NCBI GenBank assembly: GCA_964355295.1
Contig: CAYHCZ010000002.1
Span: 1-52,311 of the forward strand
Reading direction: 5' to 3'
DNA length: 52,311 nt
Source: an uncultured Methanomicrobia archaeon
GTDB lineage: Archaea > Halobacteriota > Bog-38 > Methanoflorentales > Methanoflorentaceae
Part shown: positions 8,472-49,539 of the stretch, piece by piece
How positions within the stretch are numbered: position 1 is the first letter of the stretch
How the letters are laid out: each line of letters starts with the position of its first letter
The notes under the pieces: model-generated
What the model saw: the letters and a program-made list of their open reading frames with translations, nothing else
What the model was told of the DNA's origin: nothing
Database searches by the model: none
Position numbers and translations under genes: made by a program

Positions 8472-9788
8472 TCAATCGTTTTGTTTCGTAATTTGAGAAA
8501 AAACGTCGAGGACGTATTCGATCATAGCCTTAGTGACACCAGGGTAAATGCCGATCCAAAAGAGGAGTTTCATAACCAAGTCGGTGTTATGTAGACCCCC
8601 TACTGTTCTAAATCTCGCAGCTGCATAGGCGGGTTGTCTCGTCAGGTTGCCTCCAAACAGCATTCGCGTCGCAACGAATCTCGTCTCTAAAAAGTTGACC
8701 ACCGCGTCCCTTGTGAAGGGGGCGTTATCTTTTACCATTAATGGAAAACCAAACCAGTTCGGCGTGCTGTTCTTTGTTTTTTCGGGAAGAACGAAGTATC
8801 GATCGTGTTGCTTCATCCCTCGCAAGAGCTGTTGAAAGTTTTTCTTCCGCTGATCGATGAACGTGGGCATTTTTTTGAGCTGTTCTACGCCAACCGATGC
8901 TTGTAGATCAGTCATCTTAAGATTATAGCCGATGTGCGAGTAGATATACTTGTGATCATACCCTCGCGGGAGCTCCCCTAATTGCCACCCAAACCGGTTG
9001 TTGCACGTGTTGTCGTTACCGGGCAAGCAGTAGCAATCGCGGCCCCAATCGCGCAAAGAGAGGACGATTCTGCTGAGTAGCTGGTCATCAGTGAGAATCG
9101 CTCCCCCTTCGCCGGTCGTGATATGGTGGGCCGGATAGAAGCTGCACGTCGACATATCGCCGAAGGTTCCTGTATAGCGATTTTTATAACGTGAGCCCAA
9201 CGCGTCACAGTTGTCCTCAATCAGCCAAAGGCCATTTTCATCGGCTATCTCCTTGATTCTGTCAATTCTTGCGGGATTTCCGAGGGTGTGCGCGACAAAT
9301 ATGGCCTTCGTCTTGTCCGATAGCGCCAGTTCAATTTGCGGCGTTTGAACGTCGTACGTCCCTAAGTTAATGTCCACAAGAACAGGAACTAAGCCGTTTT
9401 GAATGATAGGGTTTAGTGTCGTCGGAAAACCACACGCGGTGGTGATAACTTCGTCTCCTGGAGCAAGCCTTCTGTCCCCTAACTTACGAGACGTCAGCGA
9501 GGATACCGCCAGCAAGTTGGCCGATGATCCTGAGTTCGTCAGCAAGCAATGCCGTAAGCCGACATAATCGGCAAGATCGCGCTCGAATTGTTGGGCGTAC
9601 GCGCCTGAAGTGAGCCAAAAATCCAATGATGCATCGACTAAGCTAATCAACTCTTTTTCATCATACACTCGACCCCCAACGGGAATCCTCGTTTTACCCT
9701 CAGCAAACGTCTTTCGTGCCTTTTGGGTCTCGTATAGCTCTCGTACACGAGCAAAGATCTCTTCTCTAATAGTAGCCTCAGTTCTCAT
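8472..9788 (-). CDS. rfbH: CDP-6-deoxy-L-threo-D-glycero-4-hexulose-3-dehydrase (E1, RfbH/DdhC type; DegT family)
   Basis: LVDASLDFWLTSG, LLTNSGSSANLLA, PGDEVITTACGFPTTLNPIIQNGLVPVLVD. The diagnostic SFYPAHHITTGEGG has His in place of the PLP lysine. The ATG at 9788 gives 438 aa; an alternative TTG lies at 9815. Confidence 0.85.
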   Translation of the reverse strand: MRTEATIREEIFARVRELYETQKARKTFAEGKTRIPVGGRVYDEKELISLVDASLDFWLTSGAYAQQFERDLADYVGLRHCLLTNSGSSANLLAVSSLTSRKLGDRRLAPGDEVITTACGFPTTLNPIIQNGLVPVLVDINLGTYDVQTPQIELALSDKTKAIFVAHTLGNPARIDRIKEIADENGLWLIEDNCDALGSRYKNRYTGTFGDMSTCSFYPAHHITTGEGGAILTDDQLLSRIVLSLRDWGRDCYCLPGNDNTCNNRFGWQLGELPRGYDHKYIYSHIGYNLKMTDLQASVGVEQLKKMPTFIDQRKKNFQQLLRGMKQHDRYFVLPEKTKNSTPNWFGFPLMVKDNAPFTRDAVVNFLETRFVATRMLFGGNLTRQPAYAAARFRTVGGLHNTDLVMKLLFWIGIYPGVTKAMIEYVLDVFSQITKQND

Positions 9789-11556
9789 CTTCTTCCGTTG
9801 TCGATATGGTATCAATTAACATGTTTCTTTCCAGTTCGTAGCGGGGCAAACGAGGCTCTTGGTCCTCGATGGGCATATTCACGCTCAACTTTGGCAGGGC
9901 GAGCGTGCTTTGTTCAATAGCTACTTCGAGAAACATAGGCTCCGCGTCCGCAAACAGCGTTGAAAGCGCAGCGGGTATTTGCGCGTTTCGACTGATGCGC
10001 CTTGCCCTTATTTGATACGCGTTAACAACGTCGACGAAATTCGGCGCGCTGTAGCCAATGACGGTGGACTGATATCGACTGTTAAAGTACTGCTGTTGAA
10101 ATTGCCGTACCATTCCGTAGCACCGGTTATTGAGTAACACTATTTTCACGGGGAGCGCGTGATGGTGCACGGTTTGCAGCTCCTGGATGTTCAACTGGAA
10201 TCCGCCATCGCCAACTATGACGAGTATTGTGCGCTCTGGCTTCGCAAATGATGCCCCGATTGCCATGGGCAATGCGGAGCCCATCGAAGCCATCCCTCCT
10301 TCGGTGAGTAACCTCTGATCGTTTTTCACGTCAAACGATTGTCCCGTCCACATTTGGATCTGCCCGACATCGACGCATACGACTGCATCATCAGGCGCTG
10401 CTCGAGATAGCTCGTGAATAAAGTAGTTTGGCACGATCGTCTCATCCATAGGAGTACCAAAAGGAGGGTATTTCGTCTTGTATTGTCGAATCCATTCCCT
10501 CCAATCGTTTGTTTGTGTACTAACTTCAGAGAAACTGTGTTGATTCATATAGCGCAAAAAAGGTTTTATATGTGAGTGTACTGGATACTCTGTCTTCACC
10601 TTGCAGTTTAGTTCGGCAGGATCGATATCGACGTGGATAATTCGTGCCGACCGAGCAAATGTTTCGGGTTTGGTCCCCGTCTGCCGCGTATCGAATCGCG
10701 TTCCCAGCGCGATAATCACGTCAGCATTCGCCACGGCGAGATTCGCGTAGCGGTTACCGTACGTACCGATCATACCGATAAAGAGTGGGTTATTGTGCGG
10801 AAAGGCGTCTAAGCCCATCAGAGAAGCTACGACTGGAATTTTGGTTTTGAGCACAAACTCAACAAGCGCATCGCGAGCGCCTGAAAGCCTGACACCCCCG
10901 CCCGCGATAATAACCGGACGCCGTGCGGATTTTATGACGTGAACCAGCATATCTATACGAGCTTCGTCGATTGTGTTCTCACTGCTGAGTCGCGCTTTGG
11001 AGGTTTCGAACAAAGATCGAGCAACGTGCTCCCTCTGAATATTCAACGGGAGATCCAAGAGCACAGGACCCGGACGACCACTCATCGCAAGGACATACGC
11101 ATCTTCTAACAAAGTGCCTACGTCGTTGGCATTTGTTATCAGTGTGGCTTTTTTTGTTATGGGGTCGACTATATCCACAATAGCGGTTTCTTGAAAACCG
11201 ATCTGCCGCGTTGCTGCGTCAAACTTGAACTCATAAGTATTGACTTGGCCAGTTATGAACAAACAAGGAATTGAATCAAAAAAGCAACTTCCGATTCCAG
11301 TTATCAAGTTCGTTGCGCCTGGGCCGCTCGTCGCCAGTGCGACGCCGACGTTTTCGCCTGCCCGAGCGTAGCCTTCCGCTGCGATCGCTGCAGCCATTTC
11401 GTGGTGCATAGATATGGCAGATATGTCGGTCCGACCGTACAAGGAGTCTAGCAGGTGCGCTAATGATCCGCCACATACTTCGAAAACGTGGGTAATGCCT
11501 TTAGAGACCAAAAAATCGATAACGTAATCCGATACTTTGACTGCAGAAGTTGACAT
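9778..11556 (-). CDS. thiamine-diphosphate enzyme of the acetolactate-synthase large-subunit family; candidate YerE-like sugar-branching enzyme
   Basis: 592 aa. N-terminal GGSLAHLLD...TSGPGATNL, and ThDP motif GDGGFQLNIQELQT..LNN. Its stop overlaps the rfbH start by 11 nt. Confidence 0.8.
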   Translation of the reverse strand: MSTSAVKVSDYVIDFLVSKGITHVFEVCGGSLAHLLDSLYGRTDISAISMHHEMAAAIAAEGYARAGENVGVALATSGPGATNLITGIGSCFFDSIPCLFITGQVNTYEFKFDAATRQIGFQETAIVDIVDPITKKATLITNANDVGTLLEDAYVLAMSGRPGPVLLDLPLNIQREHVARSLFETSKARLSSENTIDEARIDMLVHVIKSARRPVIIAGGGVRLSGARDALVEFVLKTKIPVVASLMGLDAFPHNNPLFIGMIGTYGNRYANLAVANADVIIALGTRFDTRQTGTKPETFARSARIIHVDIDPAELNCKVKTEYPVHSHIKPFLRYMNQHSFSEVSTQTNDWREWIRQYKTKYPPFGTPMDETIVPNYFIHELSRAAPDDAVVCVDVGQIQMWTGQSFDVKNDQRLLTEGGMASMGSALPMAIGASFAKPERTILVIVGDGGFQLNIQELQTVHHHALPVKIVLLNNRCYGMVRQFQQQYFNSRYQSTVIGYSAPNFVDVVNAYQIRARRISRNAQIPAALSTLFADAEPMFLEVAIEQSTLALPKLSVNMPIEDQEPRLPRYELERNMLIDTISTTEEDEN

Positions 11557-12319: not shown

Positions 12320-12663
12320 ATGAAGAGCGATGGAAGTGCTATCAGAAATTTTTGTTACATTGCTGATTCTATACTGAGTTTTTTCTATATGCTTTTTAAG
12401 GGAAAAAATGGGGGACCTTACAATATAGGAAATGAAGACGTAGAGTCCAGCATCAGGCATTTAGCAAGCATTATTGGCGATCTTTCCCAGAAAAAGGACT
12501 TAGGGTTGAAGTGAATCAAGAACCGAGAAAAGAACCATATCTTAAGAGTAAGATTAAAAAATATTCTCCTGATTTAGCTAAAATCCGTGAACTTGGATGG
12601 GGGCCTCGCTTTTCACTTGAGGGAGGTTTTTTAAAAACATTAAGGAGTTATCAAGATGGATAA
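12320..12663 (+). pseudogene. C-terminal fragment of a second extended-SDR gene, with one frameshift near 12505
   Basis: DGSAIRNFCYIADSI..GGPYNIGNED, then shifted ..YSPDLAKIRELGWGPRFSLEGGF. It is homologous at protein level to the C-terminus of 14095..15165. Its stop overlaps the next ATG (ATGGATAA). Confidence 0.65.
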
Positions 12664-13573
12664 AAGAAGCAAACTAAGAGAGCTGGAAGCAGGTTACAGG
12701 AAAGATAGCTTGTCCAAGGAAGAGTATATAAAGAAGATGCATGAGGAACACAGAAGCCTTTTTGATTACTCTGAGTTTATAAAAGACAAAAATATTAAAT
12801 CAATAATAGTCTCTGAGGACGTTATACTTGAAGTGAAAAATGGGATAAAGCTTGTTTGGGACCCAGAAGATGAGAGAGCGACCCCTGTTGAGATAGTTAA
12901 TTTTGGAGATTACGAGGCTGAAGAGATACGGATGCTGCAGACTTTTCTTAAGGAAGATAGTGTCGTGCTCGATATTGGTGCTAATGTTGGATGGTATAGC
13001 TTGATTCTTGCGGGGAAAGTTCCAAAAGGGAAGGTGCTCTCATTTGAGCCAATACCAAAGATTTTTGATTATCTAAACAAGAATATTAGGATAAATAACC
13101 TCGCTAATATTAAGACGTACAATTTTGGTTTCTCAGAAAAACAGGATCTATTGGATTTTTATTATGATCCTCTCCTGACTGCGTCAACTTCATTAAGGAA
13201 TCTGCATGAGAACCGAGAAAAAATTAGAATTAGATGTGAGGTAAGAAGGATGGATGACGTTATTCCAAAAATTGCCCCAAGGGTGGACCTGATCAAGTGT
13301 GATGTTGAGGGGGCTGAAATATTTGTGATAAAAGGAGGACTTGAAGTTTTAAATAATACAAAGCCTGTTCTTTTCCTAGAGATGCTTAGGAAATGGTCTG
13401 CTAAATTTGGGTATCATCCTAATGATATTATCGCAATATTAAAAGGGATAGGCTATAGGTGTTACTATGCTGAAAGTGGAAAACTGGTACAAATTGACAA
13501 GGTGACTGAAGAAACTATCGCAACTAACTTTTTCTTTATCTACCCAGAAAGAGATATCAAAATAAATTCTTAA
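12656..13573 (+). CDS. FkbM-family SAM-dependent methyltransferase
   Basis: VLDIGANVGWYS, LSFEP, IKCDVEGAE. AAGGAG lies 8 nt upstream of the ATG. Confidence 0.8.
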   Translation: MDKRSKLRELEAGYRKDSLSKEEYIKKMHEEHRSLFDYSEFIKDKNIKSIIVSEDVILEVKNGIKLVWDPEDERATPVEIVNFGDYEAEEIRMLQTFLKEDSVVLDIGANVGWYSLILAGKVPKGKVLSFEPIPKIFDYLNKNIRINNLANIKTYNFGFSEKQDLLDFYYDPLLTASTSLRNLHENREKIRIRCEVRRMDDVIPKIAPRVDLIKCDVEGAEIFVIKGGLEVLNNTKPVLFLEMLRKWSAKFGYHPNDIIAILKGIGYRCYYAESGKLVQIDKVTEETIATNFFFIYPERDIKINS

Positions 13574-13574
13574 A

Positions 13575-13911
13575 ATGTTAGGTAAAAATACCAGAAGTAT
13601 CGCTAGCAATTCCGATTTACAATGAAGAAGCGTGTGTAGGCAGCACTGTGAAAAATCTCGCTGAAGAGTTTGAGAAACATAAAGTGGATTATGAATTGAT
13701 TCTTGTAAACCAGATTCTGTGGACAAAACTCAGGAGATTCTCGGAAAAATTGAAAAAAGCAACAAAAATTGAGAGTGATACATTTAGAGAAGAATCTGGG
13801 AGGGCTGGAGGTAGAGTGATGTATGGGCTTAATGTTGCTAGTGGGACATACATTGGATTTACCTATGCAGATGAAGAAGTTTCTGCAATGCTCAAAGCCG
13901 CACTGGCGTGA
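13575..13911 (+). pseudogene. N-terminal ~110-codon fragment of a GT2 glycosyltransferase with internal compensating frameshifts
   Basis: SLAIPIYNEEACVG...YELILVN. The expected D-S-VDKTQEILGKIEKSNKN appears only in an alternate frame. The original frame then resumes with GLNVASGTYIGFTYADEE, followed by a stop. Confidence 0.6.
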
Positions 13912-14094
13912 GCGCTAGATTCTTCAGTTTTACTGCCGAGAGTGGCAGGGCAAAACCAACCGCATCATCGGTGTGATAGAGTCAATGAAATCTAATTGCA
14001 TTCGAACTTATCAAAGCTGCTGCCCGCAAACGCGGAATTTCGGTTTAATATTTTTATTTTCTTCTTTCCTGACTTATAATAACAAAAAATCATC

Positions 14095-15165
14095 TTATTC
14101 TGCAACAGCAAAAGGTTCATCAAAACTATCAATCATTTGTCGGAATCCTTGCTCAATGGAAATGGCCCATTTAAACCCAAGGTTTGAAAGTTTCGTAACA
14201 TCAGGGGTTGTTCGAAGAAGCGGACTTGCAATATAATCTGTTTTTTCTAGTGGTTTTTCAAAGATTACAGATAATTTTTTTTCTGGATATAATTTTACCA
14301 ACATTTTTGCTAATTCCAAAATAGTTGTTTCTGTCCCATTCCCGATATTATATGCTTCATTAGGATTTCCTTTGAGTAATACGGTGAACAAACCAACCGT
14401 TGTATCGGCTAAATAAGTAAAGCTCCTGACAGCAGATCCATCTGTATGAAGAATTATATTTCGATTATTTATGATATCATTCGCAAAATCGGCAAATACA
14501 CGACCATCATCTAAACTGACACCCGGGCCATATGTATGAAAAATTCGAGCAATTTTAGTGGTGAGATGAAACTGATGATTCCATGCAATGCACATAGTTT
14601 CACTCATTCTTTTACTTTCAGTGTAAGAAGCTTTGAGATCTAAAGGATCAATTGAGCCATAATAATCTTCTCTGTAGGGTAAATGAGATGAATCAACTCG
14701 TCCATAAACTTCGCCACTACTAAAAAAGAGAAACCCTTCACAATGTTTGTCATTTGCTAAATTTAAAAGATTAATTGTACCTAAAGTATTTGCTTTCAGG
14801 GTTCCTACAGGGTCTTTGCCAAAATATTTAGGGCTGGCTTGACTTGCTGCGTGAATAACAAAATCAATTCGACCGTCATAATTAACAGGCTCACTCACAT
14901 CTTGAATTAGGAAATCCAAATCGCTTCTTCCTTTATAATATGCAAATCGTTTCATCGCTTTTTCGTGATTCCGTACTAGTGCAATGAGATGAACATTAAA
15001 TGATGGATCCTTTTCATTCAAATAAAGAAGTGTCTCAACCATATAAGCGGGAATTAAGCCATTTGCGCCAGAAACAAGAACTATTTTGTTACGAAACCTA
15101 TCCCAACTTAACTTTGTTTTAACAATATATTCTAGATCATTTTGAATAATTCGATTCCTTCTCAT
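14095..15165 (-). CDS. NAD-dependent epimerase/dehydratase (extended SDR; UDP-glucuronate-decarboxylase-like)
   Basis: VLVSGANGLIPAY (Rossmann), FFSSGEVYG, YTESKRMSE (YxxxK), RIFHTYGPG; 356 aa; visibly AT-rich. Confidence 0.8.
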   Translation of the reverse strand: MRRNRIIQNDLEYIVKTKLSWDRFRNKIVLVSGANGLIPAYMVETLLYLNEKDPSFNVHLIALVRNHEKAMKRFAYYKGRSDLDFLIQDVSEPVNYDGRIDFVIHAASQASPKYFGKDPVGTLKANTLGTINLLNLANDKHCEGFLFFSSGEVYGRVDSSHLPYREDYYGSIDPLDLKASYTESKRMSETMCIAWNHQFHLTTKIARIFHTYGPGVSLDDGRVFADFANDIINNRNIILHTDGSAVRSFTYLADTTVGLFTVLLKGNPNEAYNIGNGTETTILELAKMLVKLYPEKKLSVIFEKPLEKTDYIASPLLRTTPDVTKLSNLGFKWAISIEQGFRQMIDSFDEPFAVAE

Positions 15166-16128: not shown

Positions 16129-17112
16129 TTAGTCAAACCCTATCGCGCCTTGAACGATGTACGTCGGACGTTGCTTCACTTCCTCATAAATTCGTCCAAC
16201 ATAAACCCCGAGTATTCCGAGGAAAAAAAACAAAACCCCAAACAAGAATAGCATCAATATTATCGTTGTGGTGAAACCCGGCACGACACGCCCGTACGTA
16301 AAATATAGCCATAGTTCAAAGATAATGAGTGCGAACGAGATGAGTGACGTGACAAATCCTGCGAGTGTCGCCAAATACAGCGGTATGTATGAAAACGAAA
16401 AAATGCCTTTAAATGCAACTCCTAGCACGGTTCTTATGTCCGCTTTTGATTCGCCAGCGTATCGCGGCGGCCGTTCGTAGGAGATGCCCGTCTGCTTGAA
16501 TCCCGTCCACGCAATCACGCCGCGGAGATACTTGTCCTTCTCTTTCATGCTGTTGACGACCAAACAAACGCGCCTATCAATTAGTCGAAAATCGCTTACA
16601 TCTTTGGGTATTGTCTTGTCCGTTAGGAAGAAAATTAGCCTGTACGCTATAGAGGAGAGAATACTTCTTACGAACGAGACGCCCTCTCGTTTTTTTATAA
16701 TGCCACATACGATTTGAAAACCGTCTTCCCATTTAGCAATAAACTGTGGGATCATCTCAGGCGGGTCTTGAAGGTCAGCATTCATAATGACCGCCGCTTC
16801 ACCTCTGACGTACTGGAGTCCAGCGGCAATTCCTCCCTCGCATCCAAAATTGCGCGACAATTGAAGCACTTTGAACCGCGGATCTTCAACGTGGAAGTTC
16901 ACCAGTTTTTCAAATGAGGAGTCATGTGAGCCGTTTTCGACCATGATGACCTCAAATCTGTAGCGATCGCAGCGATCCATAACTGCTTGTAGCCGTTTTT
17001 TGAGCTCACCTAAAACCTCCTCCTCGTTGTACACTGGTATGACTATACTGATCGGCGTCTCTTTAGGGGACGTTCCGTACGATTCATTTGAACAAACAGT
17101 CATACCAATCAA
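16129..17112 (-). CDS. polyprenyl-phosphate glycosyltransferase, GT2 (GtrB/ArnC/DPM1-like) with two C-terminal TM helices
   Basis: [48 protein letters not shown], and a hydrophobic C-terminus. Confidence 0.85.
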
Positions 17113-18055
17113 TCGTCTCCATTAGGCCCTCGTCAAGCGTATAGTGCGGCCCCCAGTTTAATACTGTTTTTGCCTTCTTCGCTGAGAGATACTGTTGAAG
17201 GATCTCGCCAGAATACCTGTTTTGGATGATGGGTTCTAAGTCACTTTTCATAAGATCGAGAATCTTATGGACGATACTTAAGACGGTGTTGGGCTCCTCC
17301 GTGCTGAAGTTAAAAGCCTGTCCGTGAATTTTTTTGGTGTCCATGCTCTTTCCGAGCAATAAATAAGACTCCGCGCCATCTTTCACATAGAAGTAATCAC
17401 GAATCAAAGAGCCATCGCTTCTGATAATTGGCCGTTGATTATGCAAAACGGCACGAATCGTGCCGGGCACGATCCTGTTGAAATTGAGATCGCCGCCCCC
17501 GTACAAGTTGCCGCACCGCGTGACACAAACAGGCAGGTCATACGTCGCGAAGTACGCCTGGCTCAGCAAATCTGCACAACTCTTTGACACATCATACGGG
17601 TGTCGTCCTCGTAGCGGCGTTGCTTCGTCGTACGGCAACGCATCGTGCCCCCCATATGCTTTGTCACTGGACGCGACGATGAGTCGTGAAAAGCAGGATG
17701 CTTTTCTGCAAGCCTCGAGAATATTCCATGTTCCTTCGATGTTTGATTTGAACGTCGAAAGGGGCCCTCGATTCGCAATCGTCACAATGGTCTGCGCCGC
17801 CAAATGAAATACCGTATCGATCTCGTATTCATTGAGAATTCTCTCCAAGAGGGGGTAATCCTCAATACTTCCCTGCACAAGCACGCTTTGTTTGTCCACT
17901 CCGGACAAAAAAAGATTAGAGTTCGGTACCAAGTCCCTGATTAATCCGATCACGTACGCGCCGTGTTCGATAAGCGACTTGACAAGCCACGATCCAAGGA
18001 GTCCTGAGCACCCTGTTACGAAAACAGTTCTATCTCTCCAAAAGTCGTTTGTCAC
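17084..18055 (-). CDS. rfbG: CDP-glucose 4,6-dehydratase
   Basis: [43 protein letters not shown]. It overlaps the downstream GT2 by 29 nt. Confidence 0.85.
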
Positions 18056-18092
18056 AAGAGACTCACCTCGAAGAATGAAACGTTGTCTATAG

Positions 18093-18554
18093 CTACTTAT
18101 CGTTTGCTTTGAAACTCCAATACTTGTTGCCGGTAAAACTAATGACCAACACCAAAGGAGTCAAAATAAATTGTGCCAGCCGTGGTTCGAGTTTCAAAAA
18201 ATCGACGCACAGTAGAAGAGCACCCGCATTGGCTGTAAAGGCAATAATGTAGACGGCATTTAATTTTACGAATTCCTCTATTGATCTTCGATGGTGAAAA
18301 ACCCAGTTGTGATTCCAGACATAGCTATTTGTCACACCGATGATAGTAGCACATCCCAACGCGATTAAATATTGGATATAGTTCACTAAAACAAAAAATG
18401 CAACGTAGCCAATGACTGTATTCAAAACGCCGACTAAGCTATACTTAATAAACTGATTGATTGACGATTTTTTATCGTCAGCGAAATAGCCCGTCATTTT
18501 GTGAAAGAGAAAGCGTATCGGCCTCACTTTCATTGAGCGATAAGTGCCGTTCAT
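18093..18554 (-). CDS. gtrA: GtrA-family small membrane protein (lipid-linked sugar translocation)
   Basis: [22 protein letters not shown]...[10 protein letters not shown]...NKYWSF. Four predicted TM segments. Confidence 0.8.
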
Positions 18555-18563
18555 AGAAGAATA

Positions 18564-19346
18564 TTACCAGACTTTCCACGGAGGGGTAGACGTTCTCCAG
18601 ATATTATTGACGTACTCCAGTTCTCTAGGGGTGTCTATACACTGCCAGAAGCCGTCGTGCTTGTAAACCATGAGCTGGCCGTCATTAGCTAAGTTCATGA
18701 GGGGCTCCTTTTCCAAAATACAGTCGTCTTCTTCATTCAAATATGAAAAAAAGGCCCAATCAAACACGAAGAAGCCGCCGTTAATCAGTCCTTCAGTCAC
18801 TTGCGGTTTTTCGTTAAATTCCACTACCTTGTGCTTGTCTGTAATGAGTTCTCCAAATCGAGACGACGGTCGCACTCCCGTTACTGTGCCTATCTTTTTG
18901 TGTGACTTGTGAAACTCTACAAGCTTGGCTATGTTGACGTTCGATATCCCATCTCCATAAGTAACCATGAACCACTCTTCTGTTATGTGCTTCTTTATTC
19001 TTCTAATTCGTGCTCCGGTCTGCGTATGTTCTCCCGTGTCTGCCAAAGTAACCGTCCATTCTTTTTCGTCGTGATCGCTGTGAACACAAGTATTCGCGTT
19101 ACCTAGCTGGACTGTAAAATCGCTGTTCATCATCGCATAGTTTAAGAAATACTCTTTGATCATGTGTCCCTTGTAACCAAGACAAATGACAAAGTCACTA
19201 TACCCGTAGTGCGCATAAGTTTTCATTATGTGCCATAAGAGTGGTTTATCTCCGACATTAACCATTGGTTTCGGCCTGAATTCAGTTTCTTCACGCAAAC
19301 GAGTACCAAGCCCTCCACTCAAGATTACCACTTTTGCTTGAGCCAT
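18564..19346 (-). CDS. rfbF: glucose-1-phosphate cytidylyltransferase
   Basis: KVVILSGGLGTRLREETEFRPKPMVNVGDKPLLWHIMKTYAHYGYSDFVICLGYKG. The ATG at 19346 matches homologue length; alternative upstream starts lie at 19397 (ATG) and 19427 (TTG). Confidence 0.85.
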   Translation of the reverse strand: MAQAKVVILSGGLGTRLREETEFRPKPMVNVGDKPLLWHIMKTYAHYGYSDFVICLGYKGHMIKEYFLNYAMMNSDFTVQLGNANTCVHSDHDEKEWTVTLADTGEHTQTGARIRRIKKHITEEWFMVTYGDGISNVNIAKLVEFHKSHKKIGTVTGVRPSSRFGELITDKHKVVEFNEKPQVTEGLINGGFFVFDWAFFSYLNEEDDCILEKEPLMNLANDGQLMVYKHDGFWQCIDTPRELEYVNNIWRTSTPPWKVW

Positions 19347-19777
19347 GTCTGTCGGAGTGCCATCAGAATATGTTGTCGGTTTTTTCTTCTCAGCCATCTG
19401 TTTATGCGACCAGTTACTTGATTTCAACCTTAATAAGCCTTAATGTGTACTAGAAATCATCTGATGAGCATAAATACTGTTTTAAACTCCTAAGACCTAA
19501 TTGAAAATTAAGCTCAAATAGATTTTAAATCGCGCCTACTCACTCTTCTTTATAACTTACCCCTGCAAAGCGTATCATACCGGTCCAAATGTTGTCACCC
19601 ACAACTGGTTCCCACTACAGAGGCTGAATACGTGGAATGATATTAACCGTTCAAACGCCTGCAAGGTTCATTGAACGTTAGCCTCTTTCCCAGCGAATAG
19701 CTAATGAGGAAGGCGAACAACAAATACTCCCTTGTGCGTGCGAGATCGCCTCGCAATTAGTTGAAGTTCCGAGCTGC

Positions 19778-21325
19778 TCACGCACGCTTCTGATATAAGT
19801 ATACTTTGTATCCATAGTAATTCTTGACACCTCTCTGCGCGTAGGACGTGTTTAGAAGGTCCAGTATATAGTTCGCCTGAGCTGTTTCAGAGGTAGGAAA
19901 CGCGAAAAACCAAACCCTGTCGTGGCCCTTCACATCAGAATAAATTGTTTGGTTTATTACATTCGTATTGTCCAATTGTGCCTGGGCCGACCCCCAGCTA
20001 CGAATTTGTTTGACGGCAATGTCGGTCCTATTATTATAGTAGTCAAAAATAAGCTCCTTATCCGGAAAAACCAAAACAACATCTCCGCTTTTAGCATAAG
20101 CATCTATAAATCCGACTGCCTCTCGTGCTTCCCCAGTTCTGTTTAATGCATAATAGGGTGGCAAGCTTGCCGTGGATAGCAAGACAATGACCGCAATAAC
20201 TGCCAATCTCGTGTACTTCCGGTTGATGTTTTGTATCCCGGCAGCGACGAGCATGTAAAAAGCGACGCTGGCCGGGATGGTGTACTTGTAGTAGTAAACT
20301 GGCTGCGTAAAGCGCGAAATCGTAAACGGTATCACTATAAGAGCGAATAGCCAGACAACGAGAAACAGAACACTTGTTACGTTGACGACACGTACGTTCC
20401 AGGAATAGCTCGTTACAGCTTTTAAGGGGGTTCTCCAATCGAATAGACCGGTTTGTTTCATGTACCTGAACAAAGATAGAATAGACAGTAAAATGAAAAT
20501 TATCGAAAGCAACACGGTGCTTGCGCTTAACTCAAAAATGGGACTTCCGCTAGCGTATTTGACAAATGTCACCATCAAATCGAACGTCGTGGGACTCAAC
20601 AACCAATACCCCCCACCCTGCAAAGACGATGCTCGATGAATAAGGACAGGAATCCATGGAGCAAAAAGGGCGACGACGATCGCCTGCAGCATTACCCACC
20701 GCTTCAGCTGAAACGTATGCCTCGCCAACAAGAGGACTAGTACCATCACATAGATGTTCTGAGCAAGAACGACAAACAACCCATAAAAGTGCGTGTACAC
20801 GACCAGTGTGGTAGAGAGTACGTATCCTGCTGACGAAGCAAGCGTATTCCGCTGCTGCCAGCGTAAGAAGAAGTACATGGAAAGAAGAGTGAGGAAGACC
20901 ATTAAGCTGTACCCGCGTGCTTCTTGCGACCACCAAATATTGAACTGTGAGAGCGCGAGAATGAGCGCAGCTATTAGCCCTACCTCCTTGCCAAAGAGTT
21001 GACGGCCTACAACGAAAATTAGCGGTATCGCGAGAACCCCGAATAGGGCCGATAAAAATCTTGCGGCCAACTCTGAAGTGCCGAATAGGATTACCCAATA
21101 GTGAAGAATAAAAAAGTAGAGCGGAGGATGTATATCTAATGCTGCTGTGGATCGCAGCATTTCAGGCACGCTCATTTGAGACATCCAAACAGACCAGGCT
21201 TCGTCATACCAGATGCTTTGTGCGCCTAACCGATAAACTCTGAAGAAGAAACCAACGAGGACAATAACCAACAATAAAAAGCCATAACTAGTTATCCTCT
21301 TGCCAGAAACGTGCAGCACGCACAT
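19778..21325 (-). CDS. GT-C glycosyltransferase, family 39/83 type (PMT_2 / ArnT-like)
   Basis: YDEAWSVWMSQ..DIHPPLYFFILHYW..GTSELAARFLSALFG. About 12 TM segments plus a C-terminal soluble domain. Confidence 0.8.
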   Translation of the reverse strand: MCVLHVSGKRITSYGFLLLVIVLVGFFFRVYRLGAQSIWYDEAWSVWMSQMSVPEMLRSTAALDIHPPLYFFILHYWVILFGTSELAARFLSALFGVLAIPLIFVVGRQLFGKEVGLIAALILALSQFNIWWSQEARGYSLMVFLTLLSMYFFLRWQQRNTLASSAGYVLSTTLVVYTHFYGLFVVLAQNIYVMVLVLLLARHTFQLKRWVMLQAIVVALFAPWIPVLIHRASSLQGGGYWLLSPTTFDLMVTFVKYASGSPIFELSASTVLLSIIFILLSILSLFRYMKQTGLFDWRTPLKAVTSYSWNVRVVNVTSVLFLVVWLFALIVIPFTISRFTQPVYYYKYTIPASVAFYMLVAAGIQNINRKYTRLAVIAVIVLLSTASLPPYYALNRTGEAREAVGFIDAYAKSGDVVLVFPDKELIFDYYNNRTDIAVKQIRSWGSAQAQLDNTNVINQTIYSDVKGHDRVWFFAFPTSETAQANYILDLLNTSYAQRGVKNYYGYKVYLYQKRA

Positions 21326-22667: not shown

Positions 22668-24455
22668 TTACCTTACTGGCGTCATTATATCGAAGAATTC
22701 ATTGTTCCATGCCAGCGTATAGTTATGTGCTGCAATAAACCGCTCCATTACATCCTGGCTTTCAATGGGTTTTGTCTTATCAGGCCAATCAAAGGCACGA
22801 GTGTCAATTTTTGCTCGTACTATCACCGGCAACACACCTTTTTCTTTCAGGGACTGGTTCAAAATATTACTAAATTGATCCGAAGTATACAAGTCCGGCC
22901 AAGAATTATCAAGATAGGGTCTGCTTCCGGTTAAATAATATACCATTGGTATACTTCCAGACGCTAAGACATAATCGTCTTTTTCTACGTAAAGAGGCAG
23001 CTCGTCAACCAAGCCTTGAACAACATGTGCACGTTCTTCAGTCGTAAAAACATACTTCAAATATGGATGTTTCACACTATATCTCATTTCAAACCGGTCT
23101 GAACTATCGCGATAGGTATACTGATACGCACTGATTAATGACAAACTCAAGAAAAAGATGAGAATTAAACACACAACTTTTTTCGTCGGGATTTTTGATA
23201 AGTCTACACTATGTTGTGGCACAATTTTGTTTCCAGTATTTGGACCAAGTCTTAAGTTAAGCCCATTGAATTCCAATAAACATACACCGATAGGTATCGC
23301 AAGCCACATACCATAAATTGCATTTAATACTCCATTACCCGATCCTAATGGTGAGATTACCAACAATAGCAATGCGGTTAATGACAGTAGTGGTAATTGT
23401 TTTTTGTCAGGACTACGCCAAATAATATTTTTCACTAATAAGAGGCACAAAAATCCATACACTACCATAATGACATAACTTCCGACAGGAACTGCAATGA
23501 AGATTGTAATTCCTGTCAGATATATCACGAGTAAAAAGCCAATTGATCCAAATGAAGAACGCGAAGTTAACCAAGAATCTATTTTCGAAATCAGAATAAT
23601 TCCGATTATTGAAATTAATATTAACGAAAACACTAGGAGATGATCCTTGATAAAAAGGGAGAGTAACCCTGTCCCACTATATCTGGATGTTGGGTTCAGC
23701 CCACCATTAACAAATAAATCCAGTATTGAATTGACATATAATCCAAACTGTCCAAGAAAAACAAGTGCTCCACTAATAATGAGTATCGTAATAACAAACC
23801 CTGAAATGAAAAAAAGGGCACTTTTTATCGATTCTTTTACGTTAATCGTATTCCAGTAACCCTGCGCAAAAATACAAAGAACAAGGAGAATTCCGAGAAT
23901 ATTTGAAATCCTGTTGAAGAGATTTAATCCTAAAAAAACACCGGATAGGAGAACAAACTTGTTCTTGTATTCCAACAACCCTCTAATGAGGAAATATGCT
24001 GCGATAACATAGAAGAGCGCAGTTAAGTTGTTATAATTTATCCAAGAGAGACGGATAATAAATAATTCTGCCAAAAAAAGACCGAATAACACATATTCTT
24101 TTTTAAAATACGGTTTAAGAATAAAAAATACAAAAAAAATGGTTGCATACACAATGAATACTGAAGCAAATCTGAACCCGATCAGCCCAAACTCACCAAA
24201 AAAATGTAACCACACACCCCCTAAAAAATTGGTTAACCACTCCGAAAAACCGAATTGGACGGTGGTTGGATTATTAAAAATTTGCTGGGCATTAGTCAAT
24301 GCATACCCCGTATCGGTAAAATCCAGTCCTTGCCAAATCAAAAAAAAAGGAAATAAAATTAACAAAATAAACAAAAAAATTGATAAATTCGAACTTAGTT
24401 TAATCTCATCACGGAGTGCTTTTTTAATATTTAAAAACCAGGCTGTTCTGTCCAT
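22668..24455 (-). CDS. large polytopic membrane protein, candidate GT-C-fold glycosyltransferase or polymerase (family unassigned)
   Basis: 595 aa, at least 12 hydrophobic segments, an acidic first loop (WQGLDFTDTGYALT), and a ~150-aa C-terminal soluble domain. Strongly AT-rich compared with its neighbours. Confidence 0.6.
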   Translation of the reverse strand: MDRTAWFLNIKKALRDEIKLSSNLSIFLFILLILFPFFLIWQGLDFTDTGYALTNAQQIFNNPTTVQFGFSEWLTNFLGGVWLHFFGEFGLIGFRFASVFIVYATIFFVFFILKPYFKKEYVLFGLFLAELFIIRLSWINYNNLTALFYVIAAYFLIRGLLEYKNKFVLLSGVFLGLNLFNRISNILGILLVLCIFAQGYWNTINVKESIKSALFFISGFVITILIISGALVFLGQFGLYVNSILDLFVNGGLNPTSRYSGTGLLSLFIKDHLLVFSLILISIIGIILISKIDSWLTSRSSFGSIGFLLVIYLTGITIFIAVPVGSYVIMVVYGFLCLLLVKNIIWRSPDKKQLPLLSLTALLLLVISPLGSGNGVLNAIYGMWLAIPIGVCLLEFNGLNLRLGPNTGNKIVPQHSVDLSKIPTKKVVCLILIFFLSLSLISAYQYTYRDSSDRFEMRYSVKHPYLKYVFTTEERAHVVQGLVDELPLYVEKDDYVLASGSIPMVYYLTGSRPYLDNSWPDLYTSDQFSNILNQSLKEKGVLPVIVRAKIDTRAFDWPDKTKPIESQDVMERFIAAHNYTLAWNNEFFDIMTPVR

Positions 24456-48379: not shown

Positions 48380-49321
48380 TCATATATTTTCCTCAGCGAC
48401 TATGTACTGTTGCTCGTAGGAGATCTCTGCTATAATTCTCCTGAGATATTCTCCTACAACTGCCATAGCTGTTAGTGTCAATCCGCCTAGCATGGTAGTT
48501 GCTACCATTAACGAGTTCCACCCTAGCAGCCCGTAGGATGGATTACGGATGAATTCTATGATTATATAGAGCCCATACGTGAGACTCACACAACTCGCAA
48601 TGATGCCCACTCCTGCAACAACTGCAAGAGGCAAAGAGGAGTAGTTTATTACCAGATCAAATAACAGTCCCAGCCACCGCAGAACGCTATAGTTTGATTC
48701 TCCAGTTTCTCGTTCTAAATGCTCGACGTAAACGTTCGCAACGTTATCCACCGATGTATTTCGCACTGTGAGTGCAGGAAGAAAGGGGAAAGCGGTTCTT
48801 GTAGTTACCGCGTTTCGTATGACGTCGCTTGTGCAAATCATAAAACTTGAGATGAATATTGATGAGGGGATATGCAAAACGGAGTGCATCAGTTTCTGAA
48901 AGATGCTACTGAGCACATTTTCTATGAAACCGTGTCTTTTTTGTTCATAGGCCCCATAAACCACCGCGTACCCTTGTTCTATTTTTTTGATTAGTTTCGG
49001 TATTTCTTCGGGCGGTTGTTGCAAATCGTCGTCGATAACAATTACGTACCTACCTTGAGCGTAACGAAACCCACAAAGCGTTGCATTGTGTTGGCCAAAG
49101 TTTCTAGCTAAGTGAATTATCTTTATGTTGCTACGCCCTTCCCTAAGCCTCTTCATCACGCTCCAACTGTCATCATGACTCCCGTCATTTACCAAGATTA
49201 TTTCAAAAGAAGATCTTAAGTCAGTAAATGTTGCTGAGATCCTATGAACGAGTTCATCCAATGTTCTCTCGCTGTTATAAACAGGGATTACAACCGAAAA
49301 TTCAGTCTCTGTGTTTGTCAT
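48380..49321 (-). CDS. polyprenyl-phosphate glycosyltransferase, GT2 (ArnC-like) with C-terminal TM helices
   Basis: FSVVIPVYNSERTL, ILVNDGSHDDS, LARNFGQHNATLCG, VIDDDLQQPPEEI. The ATG at 49321 is preferred; the ORF track extends a further 50 codons to 49471. Confidence 0.85.
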   Translation of the reverse strand: MTNTETEFSVVIPVYNSERTLDELVHRISATFTDLRSSFEIILVNDGSHDDSWSVMKRLREGRSNIKIIHLARNFGQHNATLCGFRYAQGRYVIVIDDDLQQPPEEIPKLIKKIEQGYAVVYGAYEQKRHGFIENVLSSIFQKLMHSVLHIPSSIFISSFMICTSDVIRNAVTTRTAFPFLPALTVRNTSVDNVANVYVEHLERETGESNYSVLRWLGLLFDLVINYSSLPLAVVAGVGIIASCVSLTYGLYIIIEFIRNPSYGLLGWNSLMVATTMLGGLTLTAMAVVGEYLRRIIAEISYEQQYIVAEENI

Positions 49322-49539
49322 TAGAAACCTTGCAAAGCTATAAAGCGCCTCTATTGAAGGTGTTGTCACCCCGATAACTTCAGTGTCGTTTTCGTCAATA
49401 CTCCCGGTAATTATCACGCGCAAGTTATCACGTAACTGCAGACGTGGCATACTAAACTGCCAATACGCCACCCGTTTCGCTAAATTTTGTGAACGTCATT
49501 TTTAATATAGTCAAAAAACCTCTTGACAAACTTCTTTCG

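Follow-up and report, generated by a model that had tools for sequence, protein, structure and literature searches.

A candidate CDP-sugar-linked lipid-carrier glycosylation module in an uncultured methanogen-type archaeon

Described lipid-carrier systems and the archaeal locus

Three-component Gtr systems and Arn-type systems are a general route for decorating finished surface glycans. All the characterised GtrB-type enzymes take uridine diphosphate (UDP)- or guanosine diphosphate (GDP)-sugars (PMC4728340, PMC5526996, bioRxiv 10.1101/2025.01.29.634835), and no description of a polyprenyl-phosphate glycosyltransferase of family 2 (GT2) dependent on a cytidine diphosphate (CDP)-sugar was found in the literature searched. 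Here, we describe a gene block, rfbF-gtrA-SDR-GT2 (SDR, short-chain dehydrogenase/reductase), in a 52,311-nucleotide stretch of DNA from an uncultured Methanomicrobia archaeon (contig CAYHCZ010000002.1, the whole stretch being called the window below). Judging from the genes and the predicted donor pocket, we lean towards the view that this block, together with the RfbH, thiamine diphosphate (ThDP) enzyme, and SDR genes downstream, would serve, in the manner of the Arn pathway, to pass a rare sugar through a lipid carrier. As contig 2, the window belongs to a 2.08-Mb metagenome-assembled genome (MAG) that is 60% complete. mcrA was not found in this 60% complete MAG and is present in complete genomes of the same genus; because of the latter and of the Methanoregula, Methanothrix, and Methanoperedens relatives in the phylum, the organism was regarded as a methanogen-type, Mcr-bearing archaeon.

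In the Gtr systems of Shigella and Salmonella (GtrA/GtrB/GtrC), as in the module of the window, a GT2 with a GT-A domain, two juxtamembrane helices, and two transmembrane helices goes together with a GtrA-family protein, and the glycosyltransferase of the GT-C type, a candidate partner in the module, is variable. GtrB takes UDP-glucose, whereas the GT2 of the module is coupled to cytidylyltransferase and sugar-tailoring genes, and both the base-contacting Asp and the first Asp of the DXD motif are replaced in it. The Arn pathway for lipid A aminoarabinose (ArnA/B/C/D/T/E/F) follows the same logic, with tailoring enzymes interleaved with a polyprenyl-phosphate GT2, a flippase, and a GT-C; it differs in its UDP-pentose-derived donor, in an ArnC that keeps D48 and D100, in its lipid A acceptor, and in its flippase, which is ArnE/F where the module has GtrA. 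An archaeal precedent is AglD/AglR/AglS of Haloferax volcanii, in which a sugar is placed on its own dolichyl phosphate, moved out, and added outside the cell to a protein-bound glycan. In that case, however, the sugar is mannose and there is no link to CDP-sugar genes, and the flippase-associated protein AglR is presumably not a member of the GtrA family.

Sugars of the yersiniose and erwiniose type enter O-antigens via cytoplasmic transferases. Their pathways have been described for yersiniose A (DdhA-D, YerE, and YerF) and for erwiniose (ErwE/F/I/J) (PMC9306805), and, like the module, they combine rfbF, a 4,6-dehydratase, RfbH, and a ThDP carboligase, giving CDP-linked C4-branched 3,6-dideoxyhexoses; PMC9306805 describes no lipid-carrier loading step. 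In a lipooligosaccharide cluster of Mycobacterium kansasii (2015), the DPM-like membrane GT2 MKAN27435 lies among SDR genes and the glucose-1-phosphate cytidylyltransferase gene MKAN27440; its knockout blocks the addition of the 6-deoxy sugar fucose, for which the authors suggested a donor carried on polyprenol. In PMC9306805, the lipooligosaccharide cluster protein MMAR_2333 of M. marinum adjoins the caryophyllose ThDP carboligase, and mutants in MMAR_2333, mmar_2331, and mmar_2332 fail to add caryophyllose, a branched 3,6-dideoxy sugar. For MKAN27435 and MMAR_2333, the nucleotide class was not addressed and a lipid intermediate was not shown by the authors; the M. kansasii knockout is partial prior art for the CDP-to-lipid link.

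Gene order and archaeal neighbourhoods

Five intact open reading frames (ORFs), all on the minus strand, were located within 16129-21325, as the earlier sequence-only reading had listed them. rfbF (18564..19427) encodes a glucose-1-phosphate cytidylyltransferase of the RfbF/DdhA type (TIGR02623, 343 bits against a cut-off of 300.25). After 9 nt it is followed by gtrA (18093..18554), encoding a small membrane protein of the GtrA family (PF04138, 88.4 bits against a cut-off of 26.1, with 117 of 117 profile positions matched), and, after a further 37 nt containing a GAGGTGA motif, by the gene for an extended SDR (17084..18055). The last frame (16129..17112) encodes a predicted GtrB-like polyprenyl/dolichyl-phosphate GT2 (PF00535, 95.9 bits against a cut-off of 23.3) and overlaps that of the SDR. 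Whereas the spacings of 9 and 37 nt agreed with those given previously, the overlap had been put at 29 nt; since the database copy and the orthologues of the GT2 have 324 amino acids, its start is likely ATG 17103, and the overlap is therefore likely 20 nt. This overlap suggests that the SDR is translationally coupled to the GT2. Similarly, rfbF likely starts at ATG 19346 because the ORF matches the family only from residue 32 on and the orthologues have 259-261 amino acids; the gap to the gene upstream, which encodes a GT-C (19778..21325), would therefore be 350-431 nt. The spacer at 19428..19777 of the minus strand reads as AT-rich with TTTAAAA TATA-like boxes and is the probable start of the rfbF transcription unit; a sigma-70/terminator scan, which was not designed for archaea, returned 8 sites against 9.3 expected from shuffled sequence.

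We then compared 13 archaeal contexts in which the GT2 had at least 54% identity to that of the window, eight from the protein database and five from a 300-genome sample of the phylum (two of them, L018 and L022, represent the same organism). The GT2 lay within one CDP-sugar cluster in all 13, and the rfbF-(gtrA)-SDR-GT2 block recurred in every context. Twelve of the 13 had an orthologue of rfbF (61-89% identity), which mostly stood first in the block, and L016 had none; the window-type SDR (61-95%) directly preceded the GT2 in 12 and was not detected in the degraded locus L020; and gtrA was present in every cluster. A ThDP enzyme was encoded 3' of the GT2 in 13 of 13, belonging either to the type of the window (58-77% identity) or to a second type (30-37%), and RfbH (53-75%) was found in 11, the remaining two loci stopping within the ThDP gene. 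None of four contexts with a GT2 of 36-43% identity contained the CDP-sugar cluster genes. The conserved unit is rfbF-gtrA-SDR-GT2, and its gene arrangement is far from chance.

Two Methanoregula-type contexts deserve a separate remark. On an 834-kb Methanoregula-like contig (L020:7552-13895), the cluster looks degraded: GtrA is down to 114 amino acids, no SDR precedes the GT2, the ThDP gene is in pieces of 184 and 366 amino acids, and RfbH is shortened to 379 amino acids. Before the module, both this locus (L020:6348-7319) and L016 (L016:5500-6471) encode a 323-amino-acid protein whose only Pfam match is GTP_EFTU_D2 and for which NCBIfam gave no model with E up to 1e-30; in L016 it occupies the position expected for rfbF.

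Donor pocket and extent of the GT2 clade

The GT2 was colinear with GtrB of Synechocystis, the protein of the 5EKP structure, over its full length (residues 12-325 against 19-331; 252 bits, E = 1e-73). GtrB is a UDP-glucose:undecaprenyl-phosphate glucosyltransferase with a solved structure, for which the catalytic Asp157 and the acceptor-side Arg200 have been named (PMC4728340). The second-best solved relative was ArnC (136 bits), and dolichyl-phosphate mannose synthase (DPMS) of Pyrococcus gave 57 bits. Transmembrane (TM) peaks at 244-262 and 281-299 indicated two C-terminal TM helices, and the topology of two juxtamembrane and two TM helices is retained. The equivalent of Asp157 stands in SDFRL in 112 of 119 homologues and in [GT]DFRL in the remainder; R-x-x-R, with the equivalent of Arg200, is conserved, and the LQDPPE segment is kept. 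The protein scored below the equivalog cut-offs of PgfS (249 against 500) and ArnC (147 against 529). These results suggest that it is a polyprenyl-phosphate GT2 in its mode of action and an orthologue of no characterised member.

The donor pocket was examined in an alignment that set the window GT2 and GtrB beside the 13 context proteins, a further 119 homologues from the database, a second GtrB-like protein of the window (a paralogue), and four outgroups. The window GT2 carries the signature ENGS, NFGCEGG, and N-A-D. At the end of beta2, ENGS is found throughout the clade, against NDGS in GtrB and the paralogue and LDPS, LDPC, or DDAS in the outgroups. The beta3-alpha3 loop reads NFGC(D/E)GG in the archaeal homologues, against NFGK/Q/H in the relatives; clade-wide it takes the form x-[CM]-D/E-G-G, with Cys or Met after the base-contacting Gly. 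The canonical DXD (D94-x-D96 in GtrB and D100-x-D102 in ArnC) is absent, the second Asp and LQD being retained. The window GT2 and 119 of 119 listed archaeal homologues have no Asp at the first position (Asn in 116 of the latter, otherwise Met or Cys), nor do 120 of 120 bacterial members of the clade, and the replacements over the whole clade are Asn, Thr, Met, Cys, and Ala.

In the native numbering of ArnC, D48 aligns to the Asn of ENGS, N77 to the conserved Asn of RNFG, Q80 to the Cys of the clade, and D100 to the Asn of N-A-D. D48 and N77 of ArnC hydrogen-bond UDP (bioRxiv 10.1101/2025.01.29.634835). In the Pyrococcus enzyme (PfDPMS), Asp39 of the beta2-alpha2 region, the equivalent of D48, binds N1 and N2 of guanine; in the beta3-alpha3 loop, Gly68 and Leu69 touch the base (PMC5526996). 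The first Asp of DXD binds no metal, lies near the sugar and acceptor, and has been proposed to be a catalytic base "conserved throughout the family" (PMC5526996, bioRxiv 10.1101/2025.01.29.634835). A carboxylate would fit the N-H donors of uracil and guanine, and the carboxamide of Asn could satisfy the N3 acceptor and the N4 amino donor of cytosine; a pocket that lacks the Asp next to the sugar would suit a deoxygenated one. The changes in the pocket are consistent with a CDP-deoxy-sugar as the donor and are no proof of it.

An exhaustive search over 1.84 billion representatives returned 42,293 relatives of the GT2. Among the best 150 of these, both Asp residues are kept in 119 and the full triple signature occurs in 9 (40-61% identity). 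Homologues of one of these nine were actinobacterial, from Solirubrobacteraceae, Mycobacteriales, and cultured Cellulomonas, and 120 of 120 had the signature. In a maximum-likelihood tree of 164 sequences, 30 of 30 signature proteins fell in one clade of 32 members (SH-aLRT 100), which splits into an archaeal subclade (GC[DE]GG/NAD) and a mainly bacterial one (xMDGG/TAD). The signature clade is monophyletic and common to methanogen lineages and Actinomycetota. Homologues at 60-68% identity to the window GT2 number in the hundreds, many of them labelled Methanothrix, Methanoregula, Methanoperedens, or Methanomicrobiales. The arrangement had been called unusual for an archaeon; with hundreds of homologues in methanogen lineages and the Haloferax AglD/AglR/AglS precedent, this description no longer applies.

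Using an alignment of distant signature proteins, we retrieved 80 metagenome loci, 22 with signature GT2s (39-57% identity) and 58 with canonical ones, and called CDP-sugar genes by rfbF of at least 40% identity or RfbH of at least 45%. Such genes were present at 11 of the 22 signature loci and at 2 of the 58 canonical loci (Fisher p = 4e-6; relatedness inflates such tests, but the trend is unambiguous); restricted to loci of 6 kb or more, the figures were 6 of 8 and 2 of 34. Most of the remaining signature loci were short, and these still carried an SDR of the window type or a gene for a ThDP enzyme. The Cellulomonas run reads rfbF-GT2-GtrA-ThDP-DmpF-DmpG-epimerase and has overlaps of 4 nt; the cytidylyltransferase and GT2 genes themselves overlap, and a DUF6311 membrane protein adjoins. 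A Mycobacteriales MAG (L120) has rfbF-SDR-GT2-GtrA-GT87, the last being of a GT-C family, then a methyltransferase gene and, about 5 kb further, a ThDP gene; its SDR has 47% identity to that of the window. The latter locus appears to be a complete three-component system joined to the first two CDP-sugar steps. Both bacterial cytidylyltransferases scored above the TIGR02623 cut-off (346 and 349 bits); equivalog-level enzymes adjoin the GT2 in Cellulomonas, Mycobacteriales, and Methanoperedens. Furthermore, gtrA lies immediately after the GT2 in both bacterial clusters, and a ThDP gene is present in both.

Several observations on related GT2s were made in passing. Loci L046, L055, L056, and L058 and the protein P0130 represent a bacterial sub-branch of the clade that reads M-T-A-N-L-Q-D; both Asp residues of DXD are gone, the metal-binding one of GtrB and ArnC included. 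A different GT2 subgroup, DDHS...x-A-[AGS]-D-L-Q-D (L078, L083, L086, L095, L096, L101-L104, and L108), keeps the base-site Asp, has no first Asp of DXD, and usually lies near DegT-type aminotransferases where the flanks are visible; the first Asp is therefore not conserved throughout the enzyme class, contrary to the recent proposal. At L068 and L109, non-signature GT2s have rfbF (48-49% identity) and an SDR nearby, with RfbH also in L109; the GT2 of L068 reads TDNHS, with an Asn at the base site, and LDCD. The archaeal genome itself encodes two further GtrB-like paralogues of the GT2 (30% and 28% identity), at 48380-49471 of the window and at C6:15397-16302 of the same assembly (G000); the one that was checked has the canonical NDGS/DDD.

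The GT2 had no orthologue in 17 genomes of the same genus (best match 26% identity), and the module is therefore accessory in the genus. In one genome of that genus (G002; L032 1-20000), rfbF, the ThDP enzyme, RfbH, and the window-type SDR are all present, and rfbF is followed by an unrelated GT2 of 360 amino acids, with a Wzx-type flippase and a DUF2206 membrane protein in place of gtrA and the clade GT2. Set beside the window, this gives a single genus two ways of exporting the product of one sugar pathway. The pathway is thus able to supply a route of the conventional kind, whereas the clade GT2 is almost never found without it.

The proposed route, its partners, and its alternatives

A scheme can be built on what was observed, namely which genes are present, how tightly they are coupled, that the block is conserved in both Archaea and Bacteria, and that the donor pocket is particular to the clade; from this we infer a CDP donor, the identity of the sugar, a flipping step, and the pairing with a GT-C. 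RfbF would form CDP-glucose, which the SDR would dehydrate to CDP-4-keto-6-deoxyglucose. Tailoring by RfbH and the ThDP carboligase, along with reductases or a methyltransferase, may then give a C-branched 3,6-dideoxyhexose of the yersiniose type. The GT2 would load the CDP-activated sugar onto a membrane lipid carrier, GtrA may help the dolichyl-phosphate-linked sugar to reach the outer face, and a GT-C, possibly the PMT_2 protein at 19778-21325, would add the sugar to a surface glycan or glycoprotein. We consider it quite probable that the GT2 takes a CDP-sugar, whether a finished one or an early intermediate; our confidence is no higher mainly because of one exceptional locus, L051, which is described below.

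The SDR had previously been called rfbG, a name which suited it only in part. It scored below the TIGR02622 equivalog cut-off (203 against 278.45 bits), and the canonical type of the clusters without the GT2 is only 24-33% identical to it. Nevertheless, its best match in the Protein Data Bank was the CDP-glucose 4,6-dehydratase 1WVG, with SSDKAY aligned to TSDKCY and YDVSK to YSNSK, so that the S-D-K and YxxxK motifs of 1WVG are present; dTDP-glucose dehydratases have T-D-E where these two have S/T-D-K. Because the clade clusters hold no other candidate and RfbH needs a 4-keto-6-deoxy product, the SDR was read as a probable divergent CDP-glucose 4,6-dehydratase, apparently inherited together with the GT2.

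The donor is probably the product of the whole cluster, including the RfbH and ThDP enzymes encoded beyond 16129-21325. The ORF at 9778..11556 of the minus strand, together with its orthologues, indicates a ThDP-dependent YerE-like carboligase, which would add a carbon branch onto the sugar (role per PMC9306805), and that at 8472..9815 of the same strand encodes a CDP-6-deoxy-4-keto-glucose 3-dehydrase of the RfbH/DdhC type, as its orthologues suggest. Together, RfbF, the 4,6-dehydratase, RfbH, and the YerE-like enzyme would define the yersiniose scheme. The second type of ThDP enzyme (30-35% identity to that of the window) is always followed by DmpF/DmpG-like acetaldehyde dehydrogenase/aldolase genes, as in Methanoperedens, a Methanomicrobiales archaeon, and Cellulomonas (L017:9798-13516, L018:10109-13855, and L119:11589-15374), and with these neighbours it matches the published ErwE/ErwI/ErwJ scheme for erwiniose (PMC9306805). 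The clusters that were examined showed no E3 (DdhD) reductase. Between the ThDP gene and the GT2 lie a second SDR gene, 3' of the GT2 (14095..15165, minus strand), and a gene for an FkbM-family methyltransferase (12656..13573, plus strand; TIGR01444, 105 bits), which is probably involved in O-methylation of the sugar. The second SDR has 45% identity to the SDR directly after the signature GT2 of L051 and 46% to that after the GT2 of L025 (L025:10509-11525); the FkbM protein has 53% identity to the one that follows GT2-SDR in L051, the two L051 genes lying at L051:8936-10847. The cassette at 12656-15165 therefore looks like a recurrent functional partner of the GT2, as far as such neighbourhoods indicate.

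As for the membrane partners, GtrA is a putative flippase or membrane partner of the GT2; a search of the genome collection with it returned a single distant Gaiellales locus. The GT-C at 19778..21325 (minus strand) is a candidate extracellular transferase of the PMT_2/GT39-like family (PF13231, 51 bits against a cut-off of 26). It has at least nine TM segments, Asp41 is invariant in 105 of 105 homologues, position 42 is Glu or Asp, and both residues stand directly after TM1; from these features, the protein looks functional. The family is multi-copy, with two or three paralogues on several contigs (L122:7132-11575 among them), in some cases as a tandem with a short GT2 gene in between. A second PMT_2-like polytopic protein is encoded 1.3 kb beyond the GT-C (22668-24455), and, with the GT2 paralogues, it makes the GT-C/GT2 pairing ambiguous. 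In the other genomes, a polytopic membrane protein is encoded beside every cluster with enough flank, although its type varies: PMT_2 (L015 and L016), YfhO (L021), DUF6044 (L019), DUF6311 (L018, L025, and Cellulomonas), GT87 (Mycobacteriales), and some unclassified. A conserved GtrA/GtrB pair with a variable, acceptor-specific GT-C would match the Gtr paradigm, which makes the pairing of the window GT-C plausible, yet unproven.

Several findings weigh against the scheme. The first concerns the GT-C, which the sequence-only reading had counted as part of the module. The homology of the window to its closest relative, L014, starts exactly at rfbF and excludes the GT-C; no GT-C homologue was present upstream of rfbF in L014 or L015; and the closest GT-C homologues (63% and 54% identity) lie at unrelated sites, not beside the module. 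A genomic link was rejected, as these homologues and the terminal parts of contigs L121 and L014 gave no sign of a link or an overlap, and the GT-C is tied to the module by proximity in this genome only. Second, RfbH of at least 59% identity was found in 14 of 301 genomes of the phylum, and the clade GT2 in 6 of those 14; the other eight have the RfbH pathway without it, and in them rfbF is mostly followed by another SDR (24-33% identity to that of the window), with no gtrA. Third, the phylogeny of the GT2 is independent of the type of the ThDP enzyme, and the GT2 may therefore take an earlier common intermediate or tolerate different branches. Fourth, further GT2 subgroups of uncharacterised specificity, among them EN + DGD + YQGA and DN + x-S-D, share the Asn at the base site. 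The most serious point is L051. Its GT2 has the full signature (57% identity), stands at the base of the archaeal subclade, and is in a UDP-type gene setting: it overlaps an upstream SDR of another family (ArnA C-terminal/UXS-like, 104 bits), which is preceded by a UDP-glucose-6-dehydrogenase-like gene (TuaD model, 554 bits), and no rfbF was found within 8 kb of it. A split transketolase and a DegT aminotransferase are encoded nearby. What L051 has in common with the other clusters is a 4-keto sugar and a ThDP enzyme; the signature may therefore go with a sugar that is branched or derived from a 4-keto form, and not with cytidine. Given the Asn in other subgroups and the signature in this UDP-type context, the base-site Asn was rejected as proof of cytidine.

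These points bear on four other explanations. In the first, the GT2 takes an early CDP donor, namely CDP-glucose or a simple CDP-6-deoxyhexose from the adjacent SDR, and the RfbH/ThDP branch feeds other transferases. The adjacency and coupling of the SDR and the GT2 are the most constant feature of the block, and the pocket and phylogeny of the GT2 are the same for YerE-type and ErwE-type clusters; moreover, MKAN27435 was proposed to load the plain 6-deoxy sugar fucose. We nevertheless consider this explanation unlikely. A ThDP enzyme accompanies the GT2 in 15 of 15 fully visible clade contexts, the bacterial ones included, and in Cellulomonas the GT2 is directly followed by GtrA-ThDP-DmpF-DmpG in one overlapping run. 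The loss of the sugar-proximal Asp would also fit a deoxygenated sugar better than glucose.

Another explanation that we hold to be improbable is that the GT2 takes an ordinary UDP- or GDP-sugar and shares the cluster only through a common surface glycan. It would leave the association with equivalog-level cytidylyltransferases across two domains, with overlapping genes in Cellulomonas, to be accounted for; canonical D...DxD relatives have such genes at just 2 of 58 loci, and throughout the clade another residue takes the place of the base-contacting Asp that UDP and GDP users share. What speaks for it is the donor range of all the characterised GtrB-type enzymes, the L051 GT2 with its UDP-glucose-dehydrogenase-like and ArnA-like genes, and the fact that the base-site Asn is not unique to the clade.

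The authors of the M. kansasii study raised a third alternative for the DPM-like GT2s of lipooligosaccharide clusters, in which the enzyme acts at the cytoplasmic face and, without charging dolichyl phosphate, transfers the sugar straight to a glycan or lipid intermediate bound to the membrane. The loss of the first Asp of DXD, the proposed base that activates the polyprenyl phosphate, would agree with this. However, the full-length colinearity with GtrB, the conserved Asp157 and Arg200 equivalents, and the juxtamembrane/TM architecture point the other way, and gtrA in every cluster and a GT-C-type protein beside most would be pointless without a lipid-monosaccharide donor; we regard this alternative as very improbable. 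Finally, chance co-location in a mosaic glycan island, which the 17 genomes of the genus without a GT2 orthologue might suggest, is effectively refuted by the recurrence of the same block, with overlapping reading frames, in at least 30 independent contexts of Archaea and Bacteria.

The lipid-carrier route fed by a CDP-activated deoxyhexose, as first put forward from the sequence, hence gained strong support from comparative genomics in two domains and from the remodelled pocket of the GT2, whereas the UDP-type genes of L051 count against it. To this link the analysis adds its archaeal branch, a clade that proved monophyletic, the signature of the pocket, statistics in both directions, and the exception of L051. 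We give an even chance to the more specific proposition that the clade comprises the first polyprenyl/dolichyl-phosphate glycosyltransferases for CDP-activated C-branched deoxyhexoses, with addition by a GT-C outside the cell and without the first Asp of DXD; the candidate sugars would then be of the yersiniose, erwiniose, or caryophyllose type. The presence of the module in cultured Cellulomonas species makes the hypothesis directly testable. Since a whole clade lacks the first Asp of DXD, nature also supplies a test case for the recently proposed mechanism in which this residue is the catalytic base of ArnC, GtrB, and DPMS, and the signature ENGS/x-[CM]-D/E-G-G/non-Asp-A-D could serve to annotate hundreds of genes now named "dolichol-phosphate mannosyltransferase". 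If the proposition is true, the CDP-dependent branch would be an added donor class for GtrB-type loaders, and it would explain rare branched dideoxy sugars on the surface polymers of archaea and actinobacteria and possibly on mycobacterial lipooligosaccharides.

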